From Escherichia phage phiWec188, in sequence record LC739537.1: a stretch of DNA of 64,000 bases; one strand, 5' to 3'. Positions 669-31,720 of this stretch are shown in pieces; position 1 is the stretch's first letter; every line of letters begins with the position of its first letter. Both the position numbers and the translations under genes were made by a program. The notes beneath the pieces were generated by a model. It had not been told where the DNA came from. It saw only the letters and a list, made by a program, of their open reading frames with translations, and ran no database searches.

Positions 669-1271
669 ATGCAACAACTGATCGTTAATATGCCTCGCAC
701 TGGTAATGAAGTTTTTGGTGTACCAGTAGACAAAGTTTGGAAAGCACACTTTCATCTGACCTTAGCCGAGGTAAGTAGTGAAGAGCTTATGCGAGCAGCA
801 AAGATTATCGGTGCAAAATGCACAACTATCGATCTACATCGTGACACGCAATCACAACGCGATCGTATGTTAACTAAGTATCAGGGTGGCATTGACACAG
901 GCTTGATGTTGGAATGTGTGGCAAAGTTAAAAGCTGCTGGCTTCAAAGTGTTACGCTATAAACTGGAACAAATGTTCAAGGATGTAGAACATGTAATGCA
1001 GATGAACCTAAGCAAAGAGCACTACGGAGAGGTACACATCAAGACTCCTGCTTCTATGCCGGAGATTGACACTGGCTTCTTCCGTATCTCTTCTAATGCA
1101 GAAGAGGTGGATTATCGTTTCTATAATGCCCGTCTGTATACCGAAGAAGATAAGTTGCAGTTCAAGAAAGCTTATGATATGCTTCTGACAAATGGTGTTG
1201 AAATAAAGGGCTACCATGTAGAACAAGTGGTAGTAGACAGTAATCTTAACTTAGACGCATGGTGGGCTTAA
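669..1271 (+). CDS. hypothetical protein (weak 2H-phosphoesterase-like H-x-T-x motif)
   Basis: AAGGAG RBS; single HLTL motif near N-terminus; second motif not found, so family assignment unsupported. Confidence 0.5.
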   Translation: MQQLIVNMPRTGNEVFGVPVDKVWKAHFHLTLAEVSSEELMRAAKIIGAKCTTIDLHRDTQSQRDRMLTKYQGGIDTGLMLECVAKLKAAGFKVLRYKLEQMFKDVEHVMQMNLSKEHYGEVHIKTPASMPEIDTGFFRISSNAEEVDYRFYNARLYTEEDKLQFKKAYDMLLTNGVEIKGYHVEQVVVDSNLNLDAWWA

Positions 1272-1272
1272 T

Positions 1273-1929
1273 ATGACTATTAAACATATCTCTTTTGATG
1301 TATGGAACACACTGATCACAGCAAACCCAAATTACGCGGATATGCGAGCTTGGACTATCGCAAAATACGGAGATATTTCGGAAGTAGAAGCAAGAGCAGC
1401 TTACAAGAAGATCAAAAAGGAACTGGATAATGCGGCACTTCAGGGAACAGCCGAGTGTGCAGCATATGCCTGGGAAAGACTTGGTTACGAACTTGGGATA
1501 ACACCTTTGAAGTCTGCAAAGCTTCGTTTCGAGTGTGAACAGTGGTTCCTTAAGTTTCCACCACATGTGGCTGTGGATTTACCGATGCACTTGCTGTATC
1601 TTTCGGGGCGTTATGATTTGAGCATCAAGAGTAATACCAACTTCATATCAGGGGATATCCTGCGCCGGGCTTGTAAGTTTGATGGTTGGAATTGTTTTGA
1701 GTTCACCCATTTCTCGGATGAAGCTTTACTTTGTAAACCAGATCCGCGATTCTTTGCTCGCACGCTGACGTATTCTCCCATCCCTTTGTTAGGGCACGAA
1801 GTATTGCACGTAGGCGATAGTGAAGAATATGATGGAAAATGTGTTGACTTAGGATTTAACTTCTGTCATATTAAGAACCCTAACGACTTGTTAGATAAAC
1901 TTGCTAAAGGAGAACTTGTTAATGCGTAA
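1273..1929 (+). CDS. HAD-superfamily-like hydrolase (putative)
   Basis: N-terminal FDVWNTL (degenerate HAD motif I) and C-terminal GDSEEYD (motif IV-like); translationally coupled to neighbours. Confidence 0.45.
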   Translation: MTIKHISFDVWNTLITANPNYADMRAWTIAKYGDISEVEARAAYKKIKKELDNAALQGTAECAAYAWERLGYELGITPLKSAKLRFECEQWFLKFPPHVAVDLPMHLLYLSGRYDLSIKSNTNFISGDILRRACKFDGWNCFEFTHFSDEALLCKPDPRFFARTLTYSPIPLLGHEVLHVGDSEEYDGKCVDLGFNFCHIKNPNDLLDKLAKGELVNA

Positions 1930-2749
1930 TCAAACTCAAATCTTTGCTCACAAATTTGATAGTCTGGAAACTGCTCGTTTTGATATTCGTGACTATTCCA
2001 AACTGAAGTTTGGCAGCAACCAGGCGGCACGCCGTATGGGGCAAACATTGGCAGTCTCTTTCTATGACTTGGTAGTCAAGAATATGCCGGAAGAAGAGTT
2101 TGTGGTGATTCCTTCACCTTACAACCATGTGCATAACGCAGCAACCATGATGACCAACCAGTTCATCAATTTCTTGAACCTGTTGCTGCTGAATCACAAA
2201 GGTAGTCGTGCAGTAGAGTTGGATACGATTCACCGTAAGGTAAGCTACATTAACGATTATGGTTTCCTGGACAAAGCAAGCCGTAAGAAACTGATTGATG
2301 GGGACACATTCTATTGCAACAAAGATTTTTGGGGCAACAAGAAGCTGATCTTCATTGATGATGTGAACATCACGGGGACTCATGAAGATAAACTGATTGA
2401 GATCCTGGATGAAAATAAAGTTACGAACGATGTTTACTTCCTGTACTTTGCCAAGTATACTGGTAATCAAGCAGACACAGAAGCTAAACTGAACTTCAAT
2501 TATATTAACACGACAGATGCTTTCGTTAATATGATCAACACCGAACAAGATGCACAGTGTTTGGTTCGTCCTATCAAGTATCTGATGGGGCAAGCACCGG
2601 AAGAGTTTAAAATCATTCTCTCCCGTCTGCCACACCGTTATGTAGAAGCACTGTTCTTTGGGTGTCTTGGGGAAGGTTATGACAAGATCGAGAAGTATTC
2701 TGAAAACTTCGTCTTCCTGAACCGTTACTTTAACCAACATATCCTGTAA
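1922..2749 (+). CDS. phosphoribosyltransferase (PRTase) domain protein
   Basis: PRPP-binding signature KLIFIDDVNITGTHEDKL; start moved to ATG 1922 preceded by AAGGAGAA RBS. Confidence 0.5.
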   Translation: MRNQTQIFAHKFDSLETARFDIRDYSKLKFGSNQAARRMGQTLAVSFYDLVVKNMPEEEFVVIPSPYNHVHNAATMMTNQFINFLNLLLLNHKGSRAVELDTIHRKVSYINDYGFLDKASRKKLIDGDTFYCNKDFWGNKKLIFIDDVNITGTHEDKLIEILDENKVTNDVYFLYFAKYTGNQADTEAKLNFNYINTTDAFVNMINTEQDAQCLVRPIKYLMGQAPEEFKIILSRLPHRYVEALFFGCLGEGYDKIEKYSENFVFLNRYFNQHIL

Positions 2750-2758
2750 GGAGGGAAA

Positions 2759-3232
2759 ATGTTGAAGGTTGTTACTGGTAATCTGATCGATGCAGCTAAG
2801 AGCGGGGAAGTGAACGTTATAGCCCACTGTTGTAACTGCATGTGTAATATGGGTAAAGGGATTGCTCCACAGATTAAAAAAGCATTTCCTTATGCATATG
2901 CAGCCGACTTGGACACAGCAGCAGGTGATCAAAGTAAACTGGGTTCTTTTAGTTTAGGGGTGCCAGAGAATTCCTCTGATCCTTTGGTGTATAACCTGTA
3001 CGGACAGTATCGTTACGGGTACAACGCTAAAGGTCGTCAGTTGGACTACGATGCTCTTTATGACGCACTGATAGCTATGGCTAATGATTTGCTCCTCCAG
3101 GCAAAAGGGCTTAAAATTGGTCTGCCTATGATCGGAGCAGGTTTTGCGGGAGGTAATTGGGCTATCATCGAAGTGATGATTGAAGAAACTTTAGTAAAAA
3201 CAGGTCACGATGTGACTATTTATAAACTTTAA
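2759..3232 (+). CDS. macro domain protein (ADP-ribose binding/processing)
   Basis: VNVIAHCCNCMCNMGKGIAPQI and IGLPMIGAGFAGG match the two conserved macro-domain glycine-rich loops; AAGGAGGG RBS. Confidence 0.65.
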   Translation: MLKVVTGNLIDAAKSGEVNVIAHCCNCMCNMGKGIAPQIKKAFPYAYAADLDTAAGDQSKLGSFSLGVPENSSDPLVYNLYGQYRYGYNAKGRQLDYDALYDALIAMANDLLLQAKGLKIGLPMIGAGFAGGNWAIIEVMIEETLVKTGHDVTIYKL

Positions 3233-3245
3233 GAGGAGAAATAAT

Positions 3246-3467
3246 ATGGGTGTTGTTGCAGGTGTTCTGGCAGTAGTTATCGTGTTTGTTCTGGCTTTCC
3301 TGATCAGTATGATTCCAGCATGGCTTCTGCTGCTGGCTTATAACTACGTTGTTGAAATGATGGGTCACACAGATATCACTGTTCCTATCACCTTCTGGAC
3401 TGTGGTGTGTGTGGCATTTATCATGGCTGTACTACGTGGGATCTTTTCCTCAAGTTCTTCAAAATAA
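3246..3467 (+). CDS. small hydrophobic membrane protein
   Basis: 73 aa, two predicted transmembrane stretches; AGAGGAGAA RBS. Confidence 0.5.
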   Translation: MGVVAGVLAVVIVFVLAFLISMIPAWLLLLAYNYVVEMMGHTDITVPITFWTVVCVAFIMAVLRGIFSSSSSK

Positions 3468-3470
3468 GTG

Positions 3471-3498
3471 TTGACAAAGTTTTAGAATAGAGTAAGAT
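3471..3498 (+). promoter_or_regulatory. sigma70-like promoter candidate (TTGACA -35, TAAGAT -10, 16-nt spacer) upstream of terC
   Basis: consensus -35 hexamer; -10 is 4/6; located in the only sizeable intergenic gap in this region. Confidence 0.4.
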
Positions 3499-3548
3499 GT
3501 ATCACATGAGGCGGGGAGTGGTTCCCCGCAAAGAGAAAGGAGAAAATA

Positions 3549-4523
3549 ATGCAACTTGGTTTCCCCATTATTGATGTAGTGGTGTTGGTAGGTATTCTTG
3601 TTCTGTCCATCGGTATTGACTTTTTCGGGCATCGTGAGAACAAGGAAATCTCTTTCAAATCTGCTGTGGCTTGGTCAATCTTCTGGATTGGTGTGTCTTT
3701 AGCCTACTATGGTTTTGTATACTTCCAGCACGGCGCAGATTTTGCAAACTTGTTCTTGAGCGGGTATGTGTTAGAGAAGTCGCTCTCGGTAGATAACTTG
3801 GTAGTGTTTGTAGCAGTGTTCTCCAGTTTCGGGATTAAGAGCACACACTTACAACACAAAATTCTACTCTGGGGTATTGCAGGTGCGATTGTCTTCCGAG
3901 GTGTGTTTGTAGCAGCAGGGACTTATCTGCTAAGTATTGGATGGTATGTTAATATTTTCTTCGGTATTGTGATTCTTTTTTGTGCGGCGAAGATGTTGTT
4001 TAAACAAGACGATGACGCAGCAGTTGATTACTCTAAACATTGGGCTACCCGCGTCGTTCGTAAACTGTTCCCAGTATCGGATCAGATGGATGGTGAGAAG
4101 TTCTTCACGATTAAGAATGGTGTTCGTGTAGCAACTCCGGCTCTGGTTTGTGTGTTCGTGATGGAAATGGTAGATGTGATCTTTGCAGTAGACTCGGTTC
4201 CGGCTGTAATTGCAGTGACACAAGAACCACTGCTTGTATTCTCTTCGATGCTCTGTGCAATCTTAGGCTTACGTGCTCTGTTCTTTGTTCTTAGTGTGGC
4301 CCTGAAGTATCTGGTTCACCTGGAGAAAGCAGTTATCGCAGTCCTGGTGTTTGTTGGTGTGAAACTGATGTATCACCCGTTTGCAGAAACGCTGCACGCA
4401 AAAGTGAGCTTCCTGCCAGCGCATATTGACCCGACGATCAGCATGTATATCGTGCTTGGTACTCTGGCCCTGGGCGTGATTGCAAGTTTCATCTTCCCTG
4501 AAAAAGAAGAAGCTACCGCTTAA
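3549..4523 (+). CDS. terC: TerC-family integral membrane protein
   Basis: multi-pass hydrophobic protein with the TerC signature EKSLSVDNLVVFVAVF; RBS AAAGGAGAA. Confidence 0.8.
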   Translation: MQLGFPIIDVVVLVGILVLSIGIDFFGHRENKEISFKSAVAWSIFWIGVSLAYYGFVYFQHGADFANLFLSGYVLEKSLSVDNLVVFVAVFSSFGIKSTHLQHKILLWGIAGAIVFRGVFVAAGTYLLSIGWYVNIFFGIVILFCAAKMLFKQDDDAAVDYSKHWATRVVRKLFPVSDQMDGEKFFTIKNGVRVATPALVCVFVMEMVDVIFAVDSVPAVIAVTQEPLLVFSSMLCAILGLRALFFVLSVALKYLVHLEKAVIAVLVFVGVKLMYHPFAETLHAKVSFLPAHIDPTISMYIVLGTLALGVIASFIFPEKEEATA

Positions 4524-4531
4524 TACCAATG

Positions 4532-4556
4532 AACCTCCTTCGGGAGGTTTCTTACT
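4532..4556 (+). terminator. intrinsic terminator (AACCTCC-TTCG-GGAGGTT + T-rich tail)
   Basis: perfect 7-bp stem with UUCG tetraloop immediately after terC stop. Confidence 0.6.
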
Positions 4557-4571
4557 AATATAGGAGGAATT

Positions 4572-4922
4572 ATGTCTGTATATTTTGATGATGTTCAGGA
4601 ATATGTTTGGTGTCTTTCTGGCACAATCCAAGAGGTAGAAGCTGCGATTCAAGAGGTTTTTCCTTATGCTTATGTAGAAGTTAAACAGACACCTCCTATG
4701 GATCTTCCACCTAATGTTGAAGCTTGTTGTGGTTCAGGTGAGGGTACAGTCACCCCAGTTCTGCGTTACGAACTACAAGCAGCAAGTGCAAATGTCGATG
4801 ATATTATTACAGAAATTAAGGTGTATGGTTTCTGGACCTCTCCTTACGCTAAATGGGATAACTCTGACACTTGGGATTTATTCTTCTGGGATAATGAGAC
4901 AGATGATGAGGTATTTCTGTAA
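4572..4922 (+). CDS. hypothetical protein
   Basis: TAGGAGG RBS; acidic, Trp-rich C-terminus; no recognised motif. Confidence 0.5.
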   Translation: MSVYFDDVQEYVWCLSGTIQEVEAAIQEVFPYAYVEVKQTPPMDLPPNVEACCGSGEGTVTPVLRYELQAASANVDDIITEIKVYGFWTSPYAKWDNSDTWDLFFWDNETDDEVFL

Positions 4923-5164
4923 TGAAAGTTGTTTGGGTTGTGTTTGAAAATATTTGTTTTGCAATAGGTTTGTTCGTCATACTTTTTGTGTTGACAAACG
5001 TGATCAATGGTAGTAAAGTATCCCTATACAAAGACGGGGAGCAGATTTACTGCTTCTCTGGAGATTTCAAACACACCTGTGTTAATATGCAGAAAGAAGA
5101 AACTCCACACCAGAAGTCAAGAGAAGATTTTGATTGGTGGTCACTACTTAATAACTTAAGATGA
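4922..5164 (+). CDS. small membrane protein
   Basis: start overlaps upstream stop; N-terminal transmembrane segment. Confidence 0.45.
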   Translation: MKVVWVVFENICFAIGLFVILFVLTNVINGSKVSLYKDGEQIYCFSGDFKHTCVNMQKEETPHQKSREDFDWWSLLNNLR

Positions 5165-5173
5165 GGAGAAAAT

Positions 5174-6040
5174 ATGAAAAATATTCAGCCATTACCTGTA
5201 GTTGGGGATTTGTATTTCTTATCTGGTACGGGTTATTCCCCAGAAGCATTAGAAGTTAACAAGAACGTCTTCCGAGTGAAAGAAATAAGAGAAGAATGTA
5301 ATGAAATTGTTTTCGAAGGTATTACTAACGGAGTTCTTCAGTATGCAGAGATGCGTAGCTGCTTCCAGCAACCTTTCCGCCCGTTGGCAGACGAGTATAA
5401 GATTGCGGTAAATATTGACGATCTTAAAAAATCTCCTTTGTTTGAAGGGTTCTCTGCTTTTATGGCAGATACTTATGTGGATGTAAAGAGATCTAACCTT
5501 TTCGCAGGGGATAATTTCCCTCACTTTGTAGCAGAGAAAAGTCATGGTTTTTCCGATTATGTGGATGCTGTAAACTATGATGTTTCTGAATTGACAGAAG
5601 AGCAGGATTATCTCCTGTTATCTCCTAAAGATTTCATGAGCGTAATGTATGCCGTAGCTGAACAGAAAAAGAAGAAAGAAGAACCTGTAGCCAAAGTTAA
5701 AAAGGTTAAAGGTAAACGTGCCAAAGGTATTCCAGAACGTAAGCGCACCGTAAATAAGGCGACAGTTTTCTTTACCAGCGGTGAGCAATATACGATCAAA
5801 GGTTTTAAAGAAGTGGGTTACACTGCTGGCGGAAACCTTATGTTCTTCACAGTTGCAGAAGAAGGAGAAACTTTTATCCGTTTTTCCAATATGTGGGAAA
5901 TGTCTGTAGAAGATATTAAAAGTGTTGTTGTTTTAGGTGTACATAAGAGTTTCATTATTAACCAAATCTCTGATTTCAGTGCACACTTGACAGCACCAGA
6001 TTTCGAAACTACCACAACAAGCTTTAACTTCAAGGTGTAA
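5174..6040 (+). CDS. hypothetical protein with lysine-rich central linker
   Basis: GAGGAGAA RBS; KKKKEEPVAKVKKVKGKRAKG basic stretch. Confidence 0.5.
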   Translation: MKNIQPLPVVGDLYFLSGTGYSPEALEVNKNVFRVKEIREECNEIVFEGITNGVLQYAEMRSCFQQPFRPLADEYKIAVNIDDLKKSPLFEGFSAFMADTYVDVKRSNLFAGDNFPHFVAEKSHGFSDYVDAVNYDVSELTEEQDYLLLSPKDFMSVMYAVAEQKKKKEEPVAKVKKVKGKRAKGIPERKRTVNKATVFFTSGEQYTIKGFKEVGYTAGGNLMFFTVAEEGETFIRFSNMWEMSVEDIKSVVVLGVHKSFIINQISDFSAHLTAPDFETTTTSFNFKV

Positions 6041-6043
6041 TGC

Positions 6044-6634
6044 ATGAATACCGAGAGAGATTTAAAACTCTTGTGGTGGGAAGTGATGCAGGAGATCAAG
6101 GAGGATTTCCCTGTTTACTACAACATGCTACGTGAAGCTGGATATACGGCTTGCGTTAGGAACAAAGTGAATAACTCTTTCGGTTGGTGCAACTACCGAG
6201 AAAAGATTGTTGTTGTGAATTGGCACTTGCATAAAAACTCCACAAGGGATATGATAGTGGACACAATGAAGCATGAAATTGCTCATGCTATTGATGGTTG
6301 TATGGGTAAGTTCAGTCGTCATGGACCACACTGGCAAAAACTGGCAGCAGAGTTGGGAGCCAATCCTAAAGCTACTTCCAAAGAACCGTTCAATCATGAA
6401 TACAAATATGTTCTTGTTTTGGTAGACAGATTTGCCACAAGATGTGTTAGAGGGTATAATCGTAAACCTAACCGTATGACCCCAGGGAAACAACCACATA
6501 TTTGGTTGAAGAGTGATAAAGAGGGGACAGAAGGAAAAATATGGTTGTATAAATGGGAAGATTGGGTTAAAGTAGCTAAAGAATATGGTGTTTCACCTTA
6601 CACAAGAGAAATAGAAGAGGAGAATGAAGAATGA
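6044..6634 (+). CDS. SprT-like zinc metallopeptidase domain protein
   Basis: HEIAHAI (HExxH) preceded by hydrophobic beta-strand region typical of SprT/Wss1-like fold. Confidence 0.55.
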   Translation: MNTERDLKLLWWEVMQEIKEDFPVYYNMLREAGYTACVRNKVNNSFGWCNYREKIVVVNWHLHKNSTRDMIVDTMKHEIAHAIDGCMGKFSRHGPHWQKLAAELGANPKATSKEPFNHEYKYVLVLVDRFATRCVRGYNRKPNRMTPGKQPHIWLKSDKEGTEGKIWLYKWEDWVKVAKEYGVSPYTREIEEENEE

Positions 6635-7743
6635 CAAGTCCATTTTTGAAAGCGGCAACTGGTGGTCAAAAGAAATCTGAAACGAGTGTACTGACTGCTA
6701 CTACAGACGCAAGCAAGTCCGTGTTCGCTCCGAGTGTCCTGGATGCAAGTCCGGTGTATGCTCCAGCAGCGCCAAAAGCTGTGCCTACCCTGCCAACAAT
6801 GTCTCGTAAAGAGATTGAAGAAGTAGGTGCAGAAGCAGGTTTAACTCTCCGTTCTCTGAATGCTGAAGTGCTGAAGCACCAACGTAGCAATCAAGGTGAC
6901 GAAATGAGTCAACGCCTTACAGCTTTGATTAAACAAGCCAAACAGCTTGATCCTGCCTCCATTAAGCAGAGTAAAGGTGTAGGTAAACTCATCAAGAAAC
7001 TGATGGGGATGAAAGAAGATCTCTTCGGTGAGTTCGATAACGTGAACAACCGTATCGAAGAACTCGTTAAGAATCTTCAAATGGATATCCGTAAAGAAGA
7101 AGATTCTCTGGTGTACCTGGATAAGCTGCACCAGGCGATCGGACAGTACGCCGCAAGCCTGAATCGTGATATGGAATTACTCACAGCAGCTTATGAGCAA
7201 GAACTGGCTACTTTTGAAGCCACACCAGAAGATGACGTAGAAGCCCGTCAACGCGTCCGTGACACGCTTGATCTCTTGGAGATACGTATTGCTGACTTGA
7301 AGGCATTACGCTTGCTGTGCGTGCAAATGGGACCGCGTGTATTGGGTATGCAGAAAGTATCTGCCAGCCTCATGCGTTCTGCTCGTAATATTGTGAACAA
7401 TGTGATTCCTGCTTACTCGGCAAACTTCTCAATGTATATTGAAAGTCTGCGCCAGAAGAAAGCAGCAGAAACACAGAACAACGTTCTGGACGAGTTCAAC
7501 CTGGCAATCAAACTGGGTAGCGATCTTGCCACACAGAATCAGATCGAAGCAGCAGCACTGGCTAACCGCCAAGTACTGGATATTGAAACCCTGCGTCACG
7601 ATCAGGAAAACTTGGTTAAGATGTTGGAAGAAACTAACCGCATCAATACGGAAGCCCGTGCTGCCCGTGTTGATTACATCAATGAAGTTCAATCTCTCGA
7701 AGATGGGATGGTTGACGCTGTTAAGAAGGGGCTTGGTAAATGA
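6631..7743 (+). CDS. alpha-helical protein, possible TelA-like (toxic anion resistance family)
   Basis: 370 aa, predicted helical/coiled-coil, size and context (adjacent to TerC/TerD genes) fit TelA; no diagnostic motif verified. Confidence 0.35.
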   Translation: MTSPFLKAATGGQKKSETSVLTATTDASKSVFAPSVLDASPVYAPAAPKAVPTLPTMSRKEIEEVGAEAGLTLRSLNAEVLKHQRSNQGDEMSQRLTALIKQAKQLDPASIKQSKGVGKLIKKLMGMKEDLFGEFDNVNNRIEELVKNLQMDIRKEEDSLVYLDKLHQAIGQYAASLNRDMELLTAAYEQELATFEATPEDDVEARQRVRDTLDLLEIRIADLKALRLLCVQMGPRVLGMQKVSASLMRSARNIVNNVIPAYSANFSMYIESLRQKKAAETQNNVLDEFNLAIKLGSDLATQNQIEAAALANRQVLDIETLRHDQENLVKMLEETNRINTEARAARVDYINEVQSLEDGMVDAVKKGLGK

Positions 7744-7934
7744 GAATCCGTGTCTATGTAGTTGAAGATTATTTTGGTGTACGCTATGACGAGGAACGTC
7801 GATTCGCACCTATGTGCAGCGTATATTCTCCAAGCGTCTTAGCAAGTTTACGGAAAGATTATTCTTATGAAGCTTGTAATAGTTTTGGTTTTGAGATTCT
7901 TTCAGACGTAGAATTTAATGAGGAGGAAGAATGA
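7740..7934 (+). CDS. hypothetical small protein
   Basis: overlapping start/stop coupling. Confidence 0.35.
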   Translation: MRIRVYVVEDYFGVRYDEERRFAPMCSVYSPSVLASLRKDYSYEACNSFGFEILSDVEFNEEEE

Positions 7935-8104
7935 AAACATTGCGTGTGAACATCGAAACTGCCTGGGCTGGATGTACCGAGGTTGTGGATATCGAAATTG
8001 AAGACGATATGTCTCAAGAAGATATCGAAGATCTTGCAAAAGAAACATTTCAGGATTATTGTAATTACGGGTTCCATATTTTAGGGGAGGAAGAAGATGA
8101 TTAA
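7931..8104 (+). CDS. hypothetical small acidic protein (57 aa, below ORF-track cutoff)
   Basis: GAGGAGGAAGA RBS then ATG 7931; translated by hand. Confidence 0.35.
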   Translation: MKTLRVNIETAWAGCTEVVDIEIEDDMSQEDIEDLAKETFQDYCNYGFHILGEEEDD

Positions 8105-8495
8105 CCACACAAACGTACATTTGAAATTAACGGTAACAGATCCGACTCTTTTCATCAATCTCACAAGCGGTGAAATTTACGAAGTTATCACAGACGAGGA
8201 TGGTTCTTGCTTCCTTAAAGGTTATTATCTCTGTGAATCTGATGAGTTGGTATCTATTATCACCTTGGGAGAATACGAAGAACCAGGTTTCCGTGTAGAG
8301 GTTGTTAAGAATCCTGATATTATCCAATTAACTCGACAAGAACTGATCACCATCATGGAAGATGCTTTTATCGATGGGTGGAAGACTCAAAACTATGATT
8401 GGAGTGGTCCAGAAGACTTCCTGCGTCTTCATAAAGAATATGACGAGTGTAGTGAGACTACTCTTGCCATTGATGATATTAAGGCAGGTCTGTAA
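8097..8495 (+). CDS. hypothetical protein
   Basis: coupled ORF. Confidence 0.45.
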   Translation: MINHTNVHLKLTVTDPTLFINLTSGEIYEVITDEDGSCFLKGYYLCESDELVSIITLGEYEEPGFRVEVVKNPDIIQLTRQELITIMEDAFIDGWKTQNYDWSGPEDFLRLHKEYDECSETTLAIDDIKAGL

Positions 8496-9064
8496 TGGGT
8501 TGCTTTAGTTTTCTGTGTAAGGAGTCGGGCAAAGCTGCCCTCTCCACATCTTTCGATGGTTCTCCTTGCTATCTTTTCCTGTTGAAAGATGGGAAGGTTA
8601 TTGAAGAGATGTATGGCAACTATGATAGTTATGGACGTGTCTTCAGCAGTAAGCAGGATGCTCACGGGAACAGAGAAAGCTTTAAATGGACTATGCCTTG
8701 GAGCGACGTTTGTGATCTTATGTTCTCTGTAAACCGTGGAGACGGTATTGCTATGGTTTTAGCAGAACACTTTACAGGAGAAGTCCCTACAAAGCGATCC
8801 GAGGACGATCCTAATCAAGGTTGGGGAGATGGAGAAGAAGAGGAAGAAGAGGATTATTTCTACAGTACCGAAAATAATATTTTCAAACGTGTTGACAATC
8901 CTTATCATAAAGTGCATAATGTCCTCATTGAAACAGAAGACGACAAAATGGGAATTGAAGAAGATGATCCTCTTGTAACACTGCCTACAAGCGAGTTACA
9001 AAAAATCATCAAAGAAGCTTACGATTTGGGCTTCAAAACTGGTAAAGGAGGAGGGAATGTTTGA
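8495..9064 (+). CDS. hypothetical protein with poly-Glu linker
   Basis: coupled ORF; GDGEEEEEED acidic tract. Confidence 0.45.
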   Translation: MGCFSFLCKESGKAALSTSFDGSPCYLFLLKDGKVIEEMYGNYDSYGRVFSSKQDAHGNRESFKWTMPWSDVCDLMFSVNRGDGIAMVLAEHFTGEVPTKRSEDDPNQGWGDGEEEEEEDYFYSTENNIFKRVDNPYHKVHNVLIETEDDKMGIEEDDPLVTLPTSELQKIIKEAYDLGFKTGKGGGNV

Positions 9065-9329
9065 TTTTAAAATAAAAGATTCAAAACCCCAAGATGTAGC
9101 ACTTCGTTTCGAAGAGTTGGGGATTGGTGAAACTTTCATGTATTATTCAGCATATGAAGAAAATGGTTTGGATACGTTTGCAAACTTAGTATTTATTAAA
9201 AGCGGCGGCGCGACTGCTGTTTGTTTGAATAGTTCATCAAGAGGGAGTGTCCATACCGTATCCCCAGATGTACCGATGGTTGCAGTTCGTTTAGTAGTTA
9301 CCGATATCACACTTACAGAGGAGAAATAA
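9057..9329 (+). CDS. hypothetical protein, paralog A (pairs with 10351-10632)
   Basis: shares KDSKP...SAYEENGLD motif with the 10351-10632 product; each precedes a TerD-type gene. Confidence 0.5.
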   Translation: MFDFKIKDSKPQDVALRFEELGIGETFMYYSAYEENGLDTFANLVFIKSGGATAVCLNSSSRGSVHTVSPDVPMVAVRLVVTDITLTEEK

Positions 9330-9330
9330 T

Positions 9331-10131
9331 ATGTCCAATAAAATTAGCCTGAAGAAACGCCAAGACACCCTGACCATTTCACTGAAGAAAAAGAAAATCG
9401 TCAACGAAGATCAAAAGATCGTTCTGCGTGTTGCAAGCGCACTGGATATCTCCGGTAGTATGTCCAGCTTGTATCGTAACGGCACCGTCAGTGATTTCGT
9501 AGGTAAGCTGCTGCCCTTCGGTATGATCTTTGACGATAATGCACAGATCGATATGTGGGCTTTCAACAATAGCTCTCGTGAAATCACTCCGGCAACTGCT
9601 GATGTGTATGATGATTACGTTGGTAAATGCATTAATGGTCGTGTAACAGTTCAGGGTGGTACAAGCTACGCCCCTGTTATGCAAGATATCTACGATTCTT
9701 ACTTCGGTAGCACTACCAAGTATGAAACTGTAGAAACTCAAGTAACGAAAGAAATCCCTAAGAAAGGTTTCTTCAACCGTCTGTTGGGTAAAACTGAAAC
9801 TGTAGAAGCTGTTGTAGAAAAAACTGTAGCCGTTGCTGTGCCTGGTGTAGACGTTACTCCGGCAGTTGTGTTCTTCCAGACAGATGGTGAGAACGATGAT
9901 CCGAGCCGTGTACTCTCCGTACTGGAAAAGAACAAGGGTAAACCTATCTACTGGTTCATGGTGGGTGTTGGTAGTGCTCGTTTCTCTTTCCTGAAAGATT
10001 TGGCTGAAGCTTACGACAACGTAGCATTCATTGGTCTGAACGATCTTTCCTTGACAGACGAGCAGCTTTACGATAAACTCTTGTCTGAAGAGTTCGGTGA
10101 GTGGGTCGAAAAGGTTGGTGCTAAGAAATGA
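9331..10131 (+). CDS. vWA domain protein with TerD-like N-terminal leader (TerY/TerF-like)
   Basis: N-terminal ISLKK repeats as in TerD; MIDAS-type DISGSM, GGTSYAP, FFQTDGENDD, MVGVG motifs of a von Willebrand A domain. Confidence 0.65.
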   Translation: MSNKISLKKRQDTLTISLKKKKIVNEDQKIVLRVASALDISGSMSSLYRNGTVSDFVGKLLPFGMIFDDNAQIDMWAFNNSSREITPATADVYDDYVGKCINGRVTVQGGTSYAPVMQDIYDSYFGSTTKYETVETQVTKEIPKKGFFNRLLGKTETVEAVVEKTVAVAVPGVDVTPAVVFFQTDGENDDPSRVLSVLEKNKGKPIYWFMVGVGSARFSFLKDLAEAYDNVAFIGLNDLSLTDEQLYDKLLSEEFGEWVEKVGAKK

Positions 10132-10370
10132 TCGATACGCTGATCTCTCAAACGGTGTTACAAGTGATGCGCGAGAGAGAAGCTTTCATCATGAAGGGTC
10201 TTAAAGATTACTTTGGGACTCTTTCTTTGGAAGAACTCAAGCTACGCGTTGAGATCCATCAGTATCCTTTTTATGAAGAATGGATTGACAAAGCAAATAA
10301 AGCTGTTATAATGCGTATCAACAAACCAGAAATCACGACAGGAGGACAAGATGTTAAATTTCGCTATTAA
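10128..10370 (+). CDS. hypothetical small protein
   Basis: coupled ORF. Confidence 0.4.
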   Translation: MIDTLISQTVLQVMREREAFIMKGLKDYFGTLSLEELKLRVEIHQYPFYEEWIDKANKAVIMRINKPEITTGGQDVKFRY

Positions 10371-10632
10371 GAAAGATAGCAAACCAGAGATTCAGACTTG
10401 TCGCATTGCAAATCTTACACATCGGGATTTGTTTGTTCTGAAAAGCGCCTACGATGAAGACGGTCTTGACCCAGAAGCAGTCATCGTTTATATGGTATTG
10501 CGGCGAGACGAAGACACCAAGCACCCATACAATGCGGTAGAAATGAATTACAATGCAATGTTGTGTTCAATACACCATACGGCAGAGTTGGTGCAGGTAG
10601 AGTTAACAGTTAACGAAATTAAACTTAAATAA
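10351..10632 (+). CDS. hypothetical protein, paralog B (pairs with 9057-9329)
   Basis: see paralog A. Confidence 0.5.
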   Translation: MLNFAIKKDSKPEIQTCRIANLTHRDLFVLKSAYDEDGLDPEAVIVYMVLRRDEDTKHPYNAVEMNYNAMLCSIHHTAELVQVELTVNEIKLK

Positions 10633-10647
10633 TAGAGGAGACATATA

Positions 10648-11250
10648 ATGAGCGATAAAATTTCCCTGAAAAAAGGTTCCACTGACAAGATTTCCCTGAA
10701 GAAAGTTGCTCCGGCACTGAAAGAACTGCGTCTGGAGTTCTCCTGGAAATCAAACTCTAAACTGGATTTGGATGTAAGCGCACTTGTATGCCGACACAAC
10801 GCTTCTGGCAACCCTGAAATGCTGTCTGCACGTCATCTGGTTTGTTATGCTAACAAGTTTGATCCAGAACGTTCTGTATTCGCAGGTGATGATGTTCGTG
10901 ATGGTACTGGTCAAATGGAACAGATTGATGTAACCTTAGCTAAGATCTCCGATAAAGCCGAAGAGATTGCTTTTGTCCTGACTATTGATGATGAAACGGG
11001 CCAGAAACGTCTGGGCCATGCTACTGAAGGTATGCTGAAGATTTTTGATGCCGAGCGTAACGTTGAGATCCTGGACTTCGACTTCCTGGCTCCTGAAGTA
11101 GCTGGTAACACGATCTGCCACGTAGCTTCCTTGGTTCGTGAAGACGGTGAATGGAAACTGAAAGCTTACGGTGTTGGTAAAGCAGGTATGGATATCTGTG
11201 ATGTGGTTATGGCCTTCGGTGGTCAGAAAGAATGGTATGATTGCCCGTAA
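10648..11250 (+). CDS. terD: TerD-family protein
   Basis: ISLKKG..ISLKKVAP, DLDVSAL, GDDVRDGTG, FVLTIDD and GEWKLKAYG motifs line up with E. coli TerD. Confidence 0.85.
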   Translation: MSDKISLKKGSTDKISLKKVAPALKELRLEFSWKSNSKLDLDVSALVCRHNASGNPEMLSARHLVCYANKFDPERSVFAGDDVRDGTGQMEQIDVTLAKISDKAEEIAFVLTIDDETGQKRLGHATEGMLKIFDAERNVEILDFDFLAPEVAGNTICHVASLVREDGEWKLKAYGVGKAGMDICDVVMAFGGQKEWYDCP

Positions 11251-11270
11251 GATTTAACTGAAATGTTGTT

Positions 11271-11286
11271 GGGGGAGAAATCCCCC
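11271..11286 (+). other. GC hairpin with GNRA loop (GGGGGA-GAAA-TCCCCC) after terD
   Basis: perfect 6-bp stem; no U-run, so possibly RNA processing/attenuation site rather than terminator. Confidence 0.35.
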
Positions 11287-11287
11287 A

Positions 11288-11316
11288 TTGCAAAAACGCC
11301 TCTCATGTGTTATACT
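11288..11316 (+). promoter_or_regulatory. sigma70 promoter candidate with extended -10 (TTGCAA -35, 17-nt spacer, TGtTATACT)
   Basis: TG dinucleotide one base upstream of TATACT; good spacing; upstream of hydrolase gene. Confidence 0.5.
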
Positions 11317-11347
11317 GGTAGTTCATTCACCCAAAAGGAGGCAAAAT

Positions 11348-11869
11348 TTGCTGATAAAAAACTTTGTAACAGTTGCGTTACTATCCTTAACTGCTTTTAC
11401 ATTTACACCTGTCACGGCAACCGCCGAAGCTGCAAACGTAAAGACTGCTAAAGTAGTTCACAAATGTGCAAAGCAAGATACTAAAGAAAATCTCTTAGCT
11501 TGTGCAATTTACGCTGAAAGTCGTAATCAGGGTAAACGTGGAATGTATGCTGTAGGTAACGTAGTATTGAACAGGAAAGGTGATGATTACTTCCCTGACA
11601 ATATTAAAGATATTCTCTTCCAACGGGGACAATTCTCTTACAGGAAGAAGTTTAACGTTACTGAAGCAGAGCGATGGAAAGAAGCTAAAGCTATCGCAAA
11701 ACGACTTATATACCTGGATACAAACTTCCCTACACTTAGAGAAGCCCAGGACATGACAAAAGGTGCGACATTTTTTAAGAAAGTAAAAACCCGTGCACAC
11801 TGGACAAAAGATATGGTCTTAGTGTATCGTTATAAAGAACATCAGTTCTACTCACCGACAAGGAGCTAA
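11348..11869 (+). CDS. SleB-type cell-wall hydrolase with N-terminal signal peptide (endolysin candidate)
   Basis: TTG start 7 nt after AAGGAGG; LIKNFVTVALLSLTAFTFTPVTATAEA signal-like leader; AIYAESRNQ...GMYAVGNVVLNR hydrolase motifs. Confidence 0.6.
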   Translation: MLIKNFVTVALLSLTAFTFTPVTATAEAANVKTAKVVHKCAKQDTKENLLACAIYAESRNQGKRGMYAVGNVVLNRKGDDYFPDNIKDILFQRGQFSYRKKFNVTEAERWKEAKAIAKRLIYLDTNFPTLREAQDMTKGATFFKKVKTRAHWTKDMVLVYRYKEHQFYSPTRS

Positions 11870-11870
11870 T

Positions 11871-12155
11871 ATGCGAGAAGATAATACTGTTGTTGTTGCG
11901 AGCTATCTCGTTATCGGTTTAACCGAAGAAGATGTGTACTACATTCGTAAAGGTTTGGAAGCTTACGCTACCCTCTTCATGGAAGACGAAAGCGATGTTG
12001 ATAAATATTCCGTGGAGTTGCTCAACGACAGTATTTATCCTTGCATAGCTCTTAAAGTAGATGCTGTTCTGTGGGAGCGTTTTGCAAGAAGTCACGATGC
12101 TGTTGAATCTTCAATGGTTATGGCACAAAACAACATTTTAGGAGTGATTCACTAA
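11871..12155 (+). CDS. hypothetical protein
   Basis: coupled ORF. Confidence 0.45.
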   Translation: MREDNTVVVASYLVIGLTEEDVYYIRKGLEAYATLFMEDESDVDKYSVELLNDSIYPCIALKVDAVLWERFARSHDAVESSMVMAQNNILGVIH

Positions 12156-12385
12156 TGGCAGATATCATCGAAGTAAACTTCCGTACTCGGAAGAAAGTAG
12201 AGAAATACACGATACTGAAAAGTGTTTGCGTTGTTTGTTTCAACAGTGTAATCTACGATTCAAGAAAGGGCGAAGACGGTAACGAACCGTATATCGAACT
12301 CTCCAAGAGCAACGGTAGTTGCATTTGTAAAGCTTGTGCTGTTCAGATTAAGGGGGTTGTTGATGAAAACGAATGGGATAAATAA
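12155..12385 (+). CDS. small zinc-ribbon protein
   Basis: CVVC...CICKAC cysteine pairs. Confidence 0.45.
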   Translation: MADIIEVNFRTRKKVEKYTILKSVCVVCFNSVIYDSRKGEDGNEPYIELSKSNGSCICKACAVQIKGVVDENEWDK

Positions 12386-12557
12386 TACAGGGGAACTTTC
12401 TCTTGAGAACGTAACAAACGACAAACTGATTAAAATGCGAGATGTAGCTTTGGATCATCTTCAAGACTCCTTCAAGGAATATATGGAAGCACGGGATCGT
12501 GTGCTTGAGATTCGTCAAGCAATGGTTAAACGCGGAATGGTAGTGGATTCTAAGTAA
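12336..12557 (+). CDS. hypothetical small protein
   Basis: ORF; start uncertain. Confidence 0.35.
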   Translation: MLFRLRGLLMKTNGINNTGELSLENVTNDKLIKMRDVALDHLQDSFKEYMEARDRVLEIRQAMVKRGMVVDSK

Positions 12558-12566
12558 GGGGTTAGT

Positions 12567-13130
12567 ATGATTTATTATATTACCCCTTATCTGACTGGAG
12601 ATATCGGCAAAGCAATTAACGATGCTATTGCCGTTCTTCATGAAGATAGTTGGGTGTGTTTACGTGATACCGACACCATGTTCTTACTGCCAGACCAACC
12701 TTCTATGTTGGAAGATTTGGTAGCAACCAACCCACCGTTCGATGTAATAGGTGCATCCTGTAACCGTTTAGGCAGTAGTTATCAACTCCTCGGCGGAAAG
12801 ATTAATGATGATCCTGACATTCTGAACCATATTTCTCATGCCAAAGTTGCTCGTGATTACTATGGCGATGAAATTGAAGAAGTCCCGCAAGGCACTCCCT
12901 TGGCAGGTTTCTTCCTGTTGTTCAGGAAATCATTATGGAAGGAGATCCCTTTTGAAGAACGTAGCATCCAGTTCGATATAATCTTCTCAAACACTTTACA
13001 TGAACGAGGAAAAAGGTTAGGATTGATGCGTGGGATGTATCTCTTCCACATTTACCGTTTAGGTCAAAAAGATCCTCAACGGGCAATATCACACCTCATG
13101 CACTGTCATGATCACAGGAAAACTATTTAG
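12567..13130 (+). CDS. glycosyltransferase-like protein (putative)
   Basis: LRDTDTMF DxD-like motif in Rossmann-like N-terminal half. Confidence 0.4.
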   Translation: MIYYITPYLTGDIGKAINDAIAVLHEDSWVCLRDTDTMFLLPDQPSMLEDLVATNPPFDVIGASCNRLGSSYQLLGGKINDDPDILNHISHAKVARDYYGDEIEEVPQGTPLAGFFLLFRKSLWKEIPFEERSIQFDIIFSNTLHERGKRLGLMRGMYLFHIYRLGQKDPQRAISHLMHCHDHRKTI

Positions 13131-13138
13131 GGGGAAAG

Positions 13139-13822
13139 ATGGAAAATGTTAAAATTGGGGTTGGCGTTATCACTGTAGGCGTTCGTCCACTTAAAGATTA
13201 CATGGTTGCACCTGGTGTAGACTTCAAAGTGTTCCACGATCCAGATCGTAAAGGTGTAGCCTATGCTCGCAACCAACTGATGAAACAGTTTTATGACGAA
13301 GGTTTTGATTACTGGTTTATTTTCGATGATGATTGCTATCCAGTCAAACGTGGTTGGGAAGAATACTTCGTTAAGCAAGCTGTTGAAAATGGTTGGGACT
13401 TCTTTGGTATGCCAGAATACTTCAAAGATACCGTGATCGGTTGTTCGGGAGAAGTAGTTTTCTGGGAACTGGCTATGTGTCAGTTTGCAATGTATTCTCG
13501 TGCAACTGTTGAGACAATGGGCTACTTCCGTCCGTACACACATGGATATGGTTTCGAAGATGCAGAATGGACTAACCGTCTGAAAGCTTCAGGTTTGAAT
13601 AAAGGACTTCAGGGCGTACCTTGTCCGATGCGCATTATGGCATATATTCACCCTGACGATGTTTTCGGTGACAACCCTCTGCCTTTTGCTAACCTGACAA
13701 AAGAAGAGAAAGAAGCAGCGATCGGGGTTAACTGGGAAGAATACAAACTGTCTTTGGAGGATATCAATAATGGCAAAACACACATCTCTTTTGAAGAGGC
13801 TGAAGGATATGGCGCTAAATAA
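13139..13822 (+). CDS. glycosyltransferase family 2-like protein
   Basis: GVGVITVGVRP Rossmann start and FIFDDDCYP DXD motif. Confidence 0.5.
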   Translation: MENVKIGVGVITVGVRPLKDYMVAPGVDFKVFHDPDRKGVAYARNQLMKQFYDEGFDYWFIFDDDCYPVKRGWEEYFVKQAVENGWDFFGMPEYFKDTVIGCSGEVVFWELAMCQFAMYSRATVETMGYFRPYTHGYGFEDAEWTNRLKASGLNKGLQGVPCPMRIMAYIHPDDVFGDNPLPFANLTKEEKEAAIGVNWEEYKLSLEDINNGKTHISFEEAEGYGAK

Positions 13823-14756
13823 AAAACCCACCCTACTGTGTGACAACAAATTCAACAGTGGTTGTGATTATCATCGCGTCGTTATGCCGTTTTCTAATGT
13901 AGAGATAAAACCACGTACCGATGTACTGGTCTTTAATCGCATCTTCTCGAAAGGTGCTGACGAAGTAGCAAAGCTTAAGCGTCAAGGTGTTAAGATTGTT
14001 GTAGATTTGGATGATTTCTATCAGTTGAATCCAGAGCACTACCTGGCGCATCTGTACGCGCCAAACACCCGCACCATTGTGGAAATGGTTAAACTGGCAG
14101 ATGTGGTTATCGTGACAACAGAATACTTGGCATATAAAATTCGTCACTTAAACTCTAATGTTGTTGTGATCCGAAATGCTCTACCGTTCGATGATGACCA
14201 GTTCACTCTGTCGAACGATCGTACTTCGGGTACGCCTATTATCTGGGCTGGAGGTGCAAGTCATGAACCGGATCTACGTTTGCTTTCAAATACTTTTGAT
14301 GATAGTCTGTTGTCTATCGCAGGGTATGAAGCGAGCAGCACAGTGACAGGGCAAGAGTGGGTTAAGATCCGCCGTAGTTTGCCTAATGCGCAGTATAAAC
14401 CTGCTGTAGATTCTTTGAATGATTATATGTCTGCATACGATGGTCATGCTATGGCTGTAGCTCCGTTAGTTGATAATGACTTCAACCATTGCAAGAGCAA
14501 CCTAAAAGTATTAGAAGCTGGTGCTAAAGGTATTCCAATCGTTTGTTCTAAGGTATTACCTTACTACAACCCGATCGATGCCCGTGCAGTAACCTTCGCA
14601 GATAGCAAGGCAGAGTGGCACTATGAAGTTGTAAAACTACTTCGTAATCCAAACTACCGTGAAGATCGTGGACTGTTCTTGGCTGAACATGTTCGTACTC
14701 ATTACAACTTGAAGGATGCAAACGAATTGCGTCGTCAAGTGATCGAAAGTCTGTAG
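13770..14756 (+). CDS. glycosyltransferase, GT-B-like (paralog 1)
   Basis: C-terminal NLKVLEAGAKGIPIVCS sugar-donor-binding motif; paralogous to next gene. Confidence 0.5.
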   Translation: MAKHTSLLKRLKDMALNKKPTLLCDNKFNSGCDYHRVVMPFSNVEIKPRTDVLVFNRIFSKGADEVAKLKRQGVKIVVDLDDFYQLNPEHYLAHLYAPNTRTIVEMVKLADVVIVTTEYLAYKIRHLNSNVVVIRNALPFDDDQFTLSNDRTSGTPIIWAGGASHEPDLRLLSNTFDDSLLSIAGYEASSTVTGQEWVKIRRSLPNAQYKPAVDSLNDYMSAYDGHAMAVAPLVDNDFNHCKSNLKVLEAGAKGIPIVCSKVLPYYNPIDARAVTFADSKAEWHYEVVKLLRNPNYREDRGLFLAEHVRTHYNLKDANELRRQVIESL

Positions 14757-15707
14757 GTGTCTATGGGACAAATTATTCTTGACAATCGTGCTGGAAAAGA
14801 ATATAGTGTCTGCGATTATCACCGAGTAATGCTGCCTTACACAAGGCAGTTCTCGGCGCAACCGTCACAGAACGTATATGTCTTTAACGGTGTCCCTACA
14901 AAAGGGAAACAAGGTTTCATAGCCCTTAAGAGCATGGGTTTTAAGATGGTAATGGATTTGGATGACTCCTTAAACATTCCTCAAGGACACATGCTGGAAG
15001 ACATTTTTGATGCAGGTATTCGAGAAGACTTGCAATGGTTTCTTGAACGTAGTGATCTTGTGACGACAACAACACCTGCTCTCCAGGTGGAACTGTCCCA
15101 GTACAATCCTAACGTACATATTATTCCAAATGGCTTACCGTTTGATGAGGATCAGTTCACGTTAACTCGTGATCGCTATTCCAAATCACCGATAGTATGG
15201 GCTGGAAGTGAAACACATAAACAAGATTTAGCTCTACTGCCGAATTTTGGAAGGGATTTAACAATCTGCGGATTCCGTAGAGATAGTGAAGTACTAAGTA
15301 GTCAGCAATGGACTGACATACGTGAAAAAGTGGCTCCAAGCTGCAATTATGAGGCTGTTAGACCATATGAGAGCTACATGGAATCTTATGATGGTCATCA
15401 AATAATGCTTGCGCCTTTGACCGATAACCTGTTTAATAACGCCAAAAGTAACCTTAAGATTCTGGAGGCTGGTGCCAAGGGTCTGCCTTTGGTCTGTTCT
15501 CCTCGTGAGAATTACTTCACAGAAGAGTTTAAGGATTTACTGTTCTTTGCAGAATCAAGAAGTGAATGGGAAGATATTGTTAATTACCTGATCCAAGAAC
15601 CTGATGTGGGGATCGAGAAGGGATTGGCTTTAGCTAAATATGTTCGTAAGCATTATCACATTGATGTGCTGAATGAACGCCGTAGATTATTATTTGAGGA
15701 GCTATAA
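14757..15707 (+). CDS. glycosyltransferase, GT-B-like (paralog 2)
   Basis: GTG start; shares CDYHRV and NLKILEAGAKGLPLVCS with upstream gene. Confidence 0.5.
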   Translation: MSMGQIILDNRAGKEYSVCDYHRVMLPYTRQFSAQPSQNVYVFNGVPTKGKQGFIALKSMGFKMVMDLDDSLNIPQGHMLEDIFDAGIREDLQWFLERSDLVTTTTPALQVELSQYNPNVHIIPNGLPFDEDQFTLTRDRYSKSPIVWAGSETHKQDLALLPNFGRDLTICGFRRDSEVLSSQQWTDIREKVAPSCNYEAVRPYESYMESYDGHQIMLAPLTDNLFNNAKSNLKILEAGAKGLPLVCSPRENYFTEEFKDLLFFAESRSEWEDIVNYLIQEPDVGIEKGLALAKYVRKHYHIDVLNERRRLLFEEL

Positions 15708-31384: not shown

Positions 31385-31720
31385 TTAACCCTTACTCTGT
31401 GTACGTTTAGTAATATCCTCTAACATCATCTGGATCGTTGCATTCTTGAGGTCCATGATTTTTTCAATCTTCTGCTCAAGAGTAGTATTGTTCGCCAGTA
31501 ATGTAGAGTTAATCTGATTCAGCATTTGAGTAAGTTCAGCTTTCGTTGCGTAAGTGGATTCGACGAAAACAAGTTTCTTTTCCAACTCACGGGCCTTGTC
31601 TTCGACCTTCTCCAAATCAACACCAAACTTATCTATTTTTTGTTTAAACAGGAACCAGATTAAACCGATTAGAGGGATGATTGCGTCCTTAGCAAGACCC
31701 CAGACTTCTTGAAATTCCAT
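31385..31720 (-). CDS. small protein with N-terminal transmembrane helix and coiled coil
   Basis: AIIPLIGLIWFLF hydrophobic segment followed by heptad-like region. Confidence 0.4.
   Translation of the reverse strand: MEFQEVWGLAKDAIIPLIGLIWFLFKQKIDKFGVDLEKVEDKARELEKKLVFVESTYATKAELTQMLNQINSTLLANNTTLEQKIEKIMDLKNATIQMMLEDITKRTQSKG

Follow-up and report, generated by a model that had tools for sequence, protein, structure and literature searches.

The gene at positions 11348..11869 (+) of the window, by which we mean the whole 64,000-nucleotide stretch of DNA that was analysed, encodes the precursor of a peptidoglycan hydrolase of the SleB/CwlJ family (Hydrolase_2; 173 aa plus stop codon), an assignment that draws on Pfam, PHROG and fold matches and on a start codon shared with relatives. 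The explanation that we favour, with moderate confidence and on the strength of sequence comparisons, is that this protein would serve as a second or auxiliary muralytic enzyme, exported by Sec and tightly dosed, within a dispersed lysis system. According to this explanation, host RNA polymerase would transcribe the gene from a sigma-70 extended -10 promoter, the conserved TTG start would keep translation of the message low, and the product would be exported by the Sec pathway via an N-terminal signal peptide, which signal peptidase I would probably cleave. Stabilised in the periplasm through a Cys40-Cys52 disulfide, the enzyme could then cut the host peptidoglycan from there without any holin. 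A leaderless T4 gene-e-type lysozyme encoded 76 kb away would, by contrast, need a holin, and the two hydrolases, Rz/Rz1 and a holin would together constitute a dispersed, T4-style lysis system. A freely soluble and active periplasmic hydrolase should risk premature lysis if it is made before the late genes; we can only infer that the exported enzyme would be held back, either by a sub-lytic dose or by an activity that stays restrained until the membrane is de-energised.

Gene model and catalytic domain

Record coordinates given below refer to LC739539.1 (phiWec190, 150,689 bp; Stephanstirmvirinae, Phapecoctavirus). The window corresponds to the reverse complement of positions 42913-106912 of this record (reassembled via two further loci), and its positions 10600-12400 are 100% identical to it. 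The hydrolase gene is labelled 'hypothetical protein' in the phiWec190 record, while the list of open reading frames has it as 11288-11869 (+), with 193 aa counted from the first in-frame TTG. We rejected TTG 11288 as the start codon; it belongs to the -35 hexamer of the promoter described below. As judged from the sequence context, the true translation start is almost certainly TTG 11348, which is located 6 bases past the Shine-Dalgarno sequence AAGGAGG (11335..11341, +) and gives a protein of 173 aa. The same start is annotated in phi92, where the equivalent ribosome binding site is also marked, in ESCO5, in BME3 and in PsgM04F, a 97% identical relative with a PHROG-style annotation, and the TTG codon was kept in 9/9 lineages compared.

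The initial annotation described a SleB-type hydrolase with a signal-peptide-like leader, a description that our analysis bears out in both respects. Indeed, the protein matched the Pfam family Hydrolase_2 (PF07486) with E=5.4e-17 and 62.7 bits (cut-off 27), covering profile positions 2-100 of 100, and PHROG 938 'endolysin' with 2.9e-20. Its AF2 model, built with 31 homologues, had a pLDDT of 83.6, with values >90 over residues 40-170, and the only structure that Foldseek retrieved from the PDB was the SleB catalytic domain (4FET, 4F55; probability 1.00, TM (target) 0.70-0.77). In the sequence alignment to these two entries, YGESRGE stands opposite YAESRNQ; Glu57 is the counterpart of the YGESRGE glutamate of both entries and is invariant in the 31 homologues, down to 23% identity. 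The mature catalytic domain (11432..11866, +; ~145 aa, pI 9.9), as delimited by conservation and the SleB fold, carries this catalytic residue (codon 11516-11518) together with Cys40 and Cys52. Both cysteines are conserved in homologues down to 39% identity, from which we infer a Cys40-Cys52 disulfide, conserved Cys pairs being what one would expect of a periplasmic protein.

The N-terminal PG_binding_1 domain of SleB proper is absent from the phage protein, which has a single Pfam domain and an N-terminus made up of the leader and a short linker. With its predicted muralytic activity, the enzyme is probably a lytic transglycosylase. E. coli peptidoglycan can be regarded as a putative substrate, because Bacillus SleB requires muramic-delta-lactam and the E. 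coli wall does not contain this modification.

The predicted export leader and its codons

Residues 1-28 (11348..11431, +) were recognised as a putative export leader by a rule-based scan for n-h-c organisation and (-3,-1) sites across 37 homologues, by alignments and by low pLDDT, as the model is disordered over residues 1-31 (pLDDT <50). The leader reads MLIKNFVTVALLSLTAFTFTPVTATAEA and is followed by ANV. It comprises the n-region MLIK (K4), a 16-residue h-region (F6-P21) and the c-region VTATAEA, in which overlapping small-x-small sites end at A24 (VTA/T), A26 (ATA/E) and A28 (AEA/A). No other part of the protein is as poorly conserved as the c-region (mean pairwise identity 0.46), but small residues at -3 and -1 are retained across the homologues, whose sites read AEA, AKA, GQA, ALA, AVA, AYA or VDA. 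Since the (-3,-1) motif survives in a hypervariable c-region, where it is sensible only if it is cut, we read the leader as a cleaved one. Sec export is the best reading of the leader, with cleavage predicted after A24, A26 or A28. With respect to homologues in other phages, the leaders of FV3 (rV5-like; MKIKIFAIILSAFLSLPVVA, followed by AP) and of a T5-like phage (MKAALLLTAALAFSFNSHA, followed by TH) are textbook short signal peptides. A signal peptide has likewise been reported for the Vequintavirinae homologue of Pectobacterium phage CB7, a protein whose expression in E. coli proved toxic (data not shown there; PMC7344957), while one paper on related phages detected no signal peptides (PMC10698182).

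The initial annotation allowed for a signal-anchor-release (SAR) endolysin next to a Sec-exported one. A SAR leader would remain uncleaved and tether the inactive enzyme in the inner membrane until depolarisation. Several features are consistent with such a design, namely an uncharged stretch of 21 residues that is 52% Thr/Ala/Ser, the location of Cys52 five residues ahead of the catalytic Glu, the strong conservation of the h-region and of its codons (see below), and the distant Pseudomonas-phage homologues (PAK_P1, Ab03), which have longer, true N-terminal anchors in which no cleavage site is obvious. However, the uncharged stretch is broken by the invariant Pro21, which closes the h-region after 16 residues and is followed by the conserved A-x-A sites discussed above, and no pinholin gene is adjacent. 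Moreover, in the nearest other clades of enterobacterial phages, the rV5-like and T5-like ones, the h-regions of the homologues measure 12-13 residues, too short for a membrane span. Given the retained (-3,-1) motif and these short leaders, we consider the SAR mechanism very unlikely and retain Sec export with cleavage as the preferred reading.

Among all 16-residue segments of the hydrolase, the h-region is the best conserved, with a mean pairwise identity of 0.86 that equals that of the catalytic region. This conservation extends to the nucleotide level: the DNA block TTAACTGCTTTTACATTTACACCTG (11387-11411, codons 14-21) is identical in 8/9 lineages, and among degenerate codons whose amino acid is invariant, the same codon was used in all eight lineages at 7/11 positions of the leader versus 5/54 of the mature part (Fisher p=2.7e-4). 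We rejected conserved RNA structure as the cause of this pattern (RNAalifold -0.57 kcal/mol; single-sequence z-score -0.31), and an overlapping open reading frame was not convincing either. Taken with a start codon (TTG) that is both weak and invariant, the codon conservation in the leader suggests selection on the amount of a potentially lethal enzyme that is made or exported; alternatively, it could reflect a sequence-specific role of the leader. Such conservation of an h-region would not be expected of a signal peptide that is simply discarded and may point to a further function of the leader.

Probable promoter and genomic neighbourhood

Upstream of the gene, we accepted the segment 11288..11316 (+) as a probable sigma-70-type promoter. 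It consists of the -35 hexamer TTGCAA (11288-11293), a 17-base spacer and the extended -10 element TGtTATACT (TG at 11308-09, hexamer at 11311-16), amounting to 9/12 matches plus the TG. The number of promoter-like matches around the hydrolase gene was not above that in shuffled sequence, and we make the call, and predict the function, because the site is conserved: the -35 element, the TG, the spacing, the T-A---T of the -10 element, the Shine-Dalgarno sequence and the TTG start are all preserved in six relatives whose flanks diverge. Directly 5' of the -35 element, a GC-rich hairpin can be read from the sequence (GGGGGA-GAAA-TCCCCC; 11271..11286, +), with no U-tract after it. Its stem is kept with changed sequence in six relatives, and folding gave -13.6 to -15.3 kcal/mol (z=-2.8). 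The hairpin may mark where the upstream TerD transcript ends.

The initial annotation had the gene expressed from its own extended -10 promoter in the early block. The promoter itself is supported by the six relatives, but 'own' overstates the case. Indeed, no terminator was found 3' of the hydrolase gene, and the next open reading frame begins one base past its stop codon, so that the promoter would also serve downstream genes; small open reading frames, four glycosyltransferase genes and the genes for the primase-helicase and the DNA polymerase are within its possible reach. 'Early block' is imprecise as well and claims too much, since the gene belongs to a block of replication and glycosyltransferase genes, where it is co-directional with the DNA polymerase, primase and glycosyltransferase genes. 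Genome-wide, sigma-70-like sites are densest in a region of small open reading frames at record 120-135 kb, and the T4-type late promoter motif TATAAATA was not found 5' of any of the four gene groups examined.

A sigma-70 promoter, a place in the replication block and a conserved weak start codon would also suit a protein without a role in lysis, namely an early or middle enzyme of periplasmic peptidoglycan remodelling or turnover with an auxiliary metabolic or host-takeover function. The presence of the SleB-type gene alongside a canonical lysin in three lineages of phages points in the same direction, and so does the accumulation of wall precursors during infection by PAK_P3, which has been tentatively linked to the cell-wall-hydrolase gene gp151 (PMC4933390). 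An annotated cell wall hydrolase is the only PAK_P3 feature under our homology match. The authors put that link forward as speculation, however, and the homologue in question is distant (~30% identity). Furthermore, a small, basic muralytic domain such as the one found here is typical of Gram-negative endolysins, and a lytic role would explain just as well why the CB7 homologue was toxic. We therefore regard a function restricted to wall remodelling as somewhat unlikely.

The neighbourhood also bears on a hydrolase that would be carried in the virion to pierce the wall for DNA injection. What speaks for it is that the window's tail and baseplate proteins include no other peptidoglycan hydrolase domain. 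The gene, however, lies far from the structural module and on the opposite strand, it codes for a small single-domain protein with a Sec-type leader and no tail-protein fusion, and its homologues in phages of unrelated morphotypes are always found among replication genes, which makes a virion-associated role extremely improbable.

Dispersed lysis genes and comparison with known systems

The spanin genes are located on the minus strand. The i-spanin (Rz-like; 59218..59625, -) has 135 aa with an N-terminal TMD and matched PHROG 4297 'Rz-like spanin' with 2.9e-24, and the o-spanin (Rz1-like; 58983..59309, -) has 108 aa with the lipobox LMMTG/C and matched PHROG 1267 'Rz-like spanin' with 8.9e-17. 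Rz1 overlaps the 3' end of Rz and stops 10 bases short of the large terminase gene. The distance from the spanins to the hydrolase gene is 47.1 kb, in agreement with the separation of about 47 kb that had been proposed. The initial annotation was equally right in finding no holin beside either of them: the open reading frames that adjoin the hydrolase gene (TerD-like, 94 aa and 76 aa) or the spanins lack TMDs, and none of them matched a holin family.

Its claim that the SleB-type enzyme is the only recognisable peptidoglycan hydrolase in the window is valid, as Hydrolase_2 was the only family of this kind in a Pfam scan of all 81 window open reading frames of at least 60 aa, but the enzyme is not the only one of the phage. 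Outside the window, tblastn with T4 lysozyme found a T4 gene-e-type lysozyme of 167 aa (record LC739539.1 18419-18922; PF00959 2e-11). This second lysozyme is 49% identical to T4 lysozyme (47-50% range), has the Glu/Asp/Thr triad conserved and carries no leader. In phiWec190 it is annotated 'hypothetical protein' and flanked by PhoH-like and thioredoxin-like genes, and no holin was found nearby. Lambda R as tblastn probe gave nothing significant. The Pharokka annotation of PsgM04F leaves the T4-type lysozyme 'hypothetical' too and is hence not exhaustive.

For the holin search, the whole reassembled genome was scanned for Kyte-Doolittle TMDs, and five candidates were compared with Pfam and ten with PHROGs. 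None of these membrane-protein candidates matched a holin family, the T-type holin family included. The small membrane proteins found comprise a tandem pair of 62-aa proteins with two TMDs each (record 35595-35981) as well as candidates inside the window at 3246-3467, 4922-5164 and 31385-31720. The 'hol-like chemotaxis protein' of PsgM04F was rejected as a holin, having no TMD. The lysis genes are dispersed over the record, with the hydrolase at 95.0-95.6 kb, the spanins at 47.3-47.9 kb and the T4-type lysozyme at 18.4-18.9 kb, and the split lysis system suggested beforehand is hence evident as three separate gene sets. A canonical endolysin-holin cassette elsewhere in the genome had been named as evidence that would speak against such a system; what we found is half of it, as the canonical endolysin exists outside the window with no holin cassette beside it, nor was a holin-endolysin cassette found anywhere in the genome. 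Homologues with at least 60% identity were present in ~131 phage records for the SleB-type gene and ~132 for the T4-type lysozyme, and, with the two record sets counted separately, both wall hydrolases appear to belong to the core gene set of the subfamily (phi92/phAPEC8 group).

In a phage with two such enzymes, the SleB-type protein might itself be the principal endolysin, Sec-exported in advance and let loose once a holin or pinholin has depolarised the membrane, with the T4-type lysozyme being redundant or otherwise employed. Names would agree with this, as phi92 gp170 and many RefSeq homologues are called 'endolysin', which is also the label of PHROG 938, and in PAK_P1-/KPP10-like Pseudomonas phages the membrane-anchored homologue is the annotated endolysin. 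Besides the toxic CB7 protein, there is the homologue of CR3, to which a part in lysis has been ascribed (PMC7344957). These labels are homology annotation, however, and the T4 gene-e orthologue is complete, with an intact triad and close homologues in about as many records. In addition, T5-like phages possess a canonical holin-peptidase cassette to which the SleB-type gene is an extra, and a start codon as weak as TTG speaks for a low dose. We consider it unlikely that the SleB-type enzyme is the principal endolysin. An auxiliary or second-lysin role appears likelier than that of a sole endolysin because the combination of a canonical lysin with a SleB-type enzyme recurs across lineages.

More tentatively, phi92-like, rV5-like and T5-like phages might keep beside their canonical lysin a holin-independent, tightly dosed periplasmic factor that pre-weakens or remodels the wall, or that lyses cells where the holin pathway fails, a broader idea that we hold possible but put well behind the favoured one. 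If it were true, the invariant TTG and the nucleotide conservation of the leader would mark a dedicated control of translation or export, or a sequence-specific partner of the leader. The SleB-type hydrolase as such is already known from the annotation of close relatives and of the rV5 group and from papers on these phages, and is in this sense an ordinary, if putative, second lysin. The pairing of a canonical lysin with a SleB-type enzyme of predicted secretion in three phage lineages nonetheless poses a genuine though modest question. Provided that it is exported and active, the enzyme would be a natural holin-independent lysin of a Gram-negative phage. It could then help to explain lysis timing in large virulent coliphages without a recognisable holin, and could offer a candidate enzybiotic scaffold, with a leader useful for the periplasmic delivery of lysins.

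Matches to the SleB-type protein were found by tblastn in 1,179 phage records, including phi92, rV5-like phages, where it bears the name 'SleB', T5-like Epseptimavirus, Pakpunavirus and Nankokuvirus. Its orthologues in Stephanstirmvirinae, namely phi92 gp170 'endolysin' and the 'putative cell wall hydrolase SleB' of ESCO5, BME3 and others, are 68-79% identical and 169-173 aa long. They share the TTG start, the leader, the promoter and the site 3' of TerD-like genes and 5' of glycosyltransferases, with no material difference. This picture is in line with previous work on Phapecoctavirus (PMC10793346) and on Justusliebigvirus BME3 (PMC12210895), where 'two lytic proteins' or 'two endolysins' (PF00959 and PF07486) were described with no holin nearby.

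The SleB-like proteins of Vequintavirinae (rV5, FV3, PVP-SE1 gp243, CB7_83, CR3_087) belong to the same family and have 36-42% identity, a signal peptide and the Cys pair. In these phages too, the hydrolase gene lies away from spanins that sit beside the large terminase, and there is no classic lysis cassette; spanin genes adjoining the large terminase have been described for CB7, rV5 and PVP-SE1, the absence of a classic lysis cassette for CB7, and three candidate wall-degrading enzymes for Vequintavirinae (PMC7344957). The genes differ from the one analysed here by a GTG start and by other neighbours (MoxR and rIIA in FV3), and in CB7 a 65-aa holin candidate with two TMDs overlaps the SleB-like gene, whereas phiWec190 has no such open reading frame. 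For T5-like Salmonella phages, an M15C peptidase gene was reported to adjoin the holin gene with the SleB-type gene far away, and the authors left open which enzyme is used (PMC11180984).

Outside phages, Bacillus SleB/CwlJ (4F55, 4FET) shares the catalytic fold and the Glu in Y-[AG]-E-S-R. It is, however, only 21-23% identical, contains the PG_binding_1 domain that the phage protein is missing, and functions in germination as opposed to phage infection. Lys44 of Oenococcus phage fOg44 and the SAR endolysins (P1 Lyz, phage 21 R) are likewise muralytic and routed through Sec without a holin, as is predicted for the hydrolase described here, and they need restraint until the membrane is depolarised (PMC7143992). 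They belong to other catalytic families; Lys44 is part of a Gram-positive system, while the SAR enzymes stay uncleaved and are usually encoded beside a pinholin gene.

In T4, the lysis genes e, t, rI, rIII and pseT.3/pseT.2 are dispersed. We know of no exported SleB-type enzyme in T4; the likeness lies in the scattering of the lysis genes and in the second enzyme, which is an orthologue of gene e.

Codon conservation in the hydrolase leader

Synonymous variation in the SleB-type wall hydrolase gene (window 11348-11869, + strand) was suppressed over the region encoding the predicted export leader (11348-11431), and especially between positions 11387 and 11411, a 25-base block that was identical in eight of nine lineages. 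When we compared amino-acid-invariant degenerate codons across eight lineages, 7 of 11 were invariant in the leader, whereas for the mature part of the protein the count was 5 of 54 (Fisher test, p=2.7e-4). The TTG start was likewise invariant. As possible causes of this conservation we considered predicted RNA structure and overlapping ORFs, both of which fail to account for the pattern. Upstream of the gene, a GC-rich hairpin with a GAAA loop (11271-11286) is found immediately 5' of the -35 hexamer and is conserved in relatives, where the stem is retained although the stem sequences differ; no U-tract was found at this hairpin.

Gene neighbourhoods of the two wall hydrolases

The region upstream of the hydrolase is occupied by a Ter-type stress-response gene set (window 669-11250, + strand), which includes genes for TerC (3549-4523, +) and a TerD-domain protein (10648-11250, +). 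Further Pfam matches, assigned to the block as a whole rather than to individual ORFs, were to TelA, vWA-TerF-like, PRTase ComF-like, HAD hydrolase, SprT-like and Macro domains. For a virulent phage, so many genes of this kind represent a considerable commitment. Downstream of the hydrolase lie four consecutive glycosyltransferase genes (12567-15707, +), and the second lysin, a T4 gene-e-type lysozyme encoded outside the window, adjoins rmlA/B/C/D-like genes of the dTDP-rhamnose pathway (LC739539.1 19343-22618). Thus, both wall hydrolases are neighbours of sugar-modifying genes, which may be a coincidence or more.

Small membrane proteins as holin candidates

By our judgement, the most holin/antiholin-like candidates of the genome are a tandem pair of 62-residue proteins encoded outside the window (LC739539.1 35595-35783 and 35793-35981, - strand; locus L005), each with two predicted transmembrane domains (TMDs). 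The pair is flanked by genes for a nucleotide pyrophosphohydrolase and a DNA ligase, and its PHROG matches were exclusively to function-unknown groups. Within the window, three small membrane proteins gave no holin family match in Pfam and PHROG scans: a 73-residue protein with two TMDs adjoining TerC (3246-3467, +), an 80-residue protein with one TMD (4922-5164, +), and a 111-residue protein with an N-terminal TMD and a coiled coil in the tail-fibre module (31385-31720, -). The last of these matched a PHROG labelled 'lipoprotein', despite which it lacks a lipobox Cys.

Host and gene labels in related records

Record OR584014.1, the source of our loci L001-L003, was deposited as Pseudomonas phage PsgM04F with P. 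coronafaciens pv. garcae as its host, and over the two regions compared it is about 97% identical to the E. coli phage phiWec190. Moreover, rV5-like or T5-like versions of the hydrolase gene also occur in several 'Campylobacter phage' records (C2, C13). Either the host assignments seem questionable, or these phages infect an unusually wide range of hosts. The PHROG-based annotation of PsgM04F leaves a clear T4 gene-e-type lysozyme (OR584014.1 92695-93198; 42695-43198 of locus L002) as a 'hypothetical protein'. From annotation tables alone, the second lysin would therefore have stayed hidden. In other records its orthologue is labelled 'baseplate hub subunit and tail lysozyme', contrary to which the T4-type lysozyme is a stand-alone enzyme of 167 residues.
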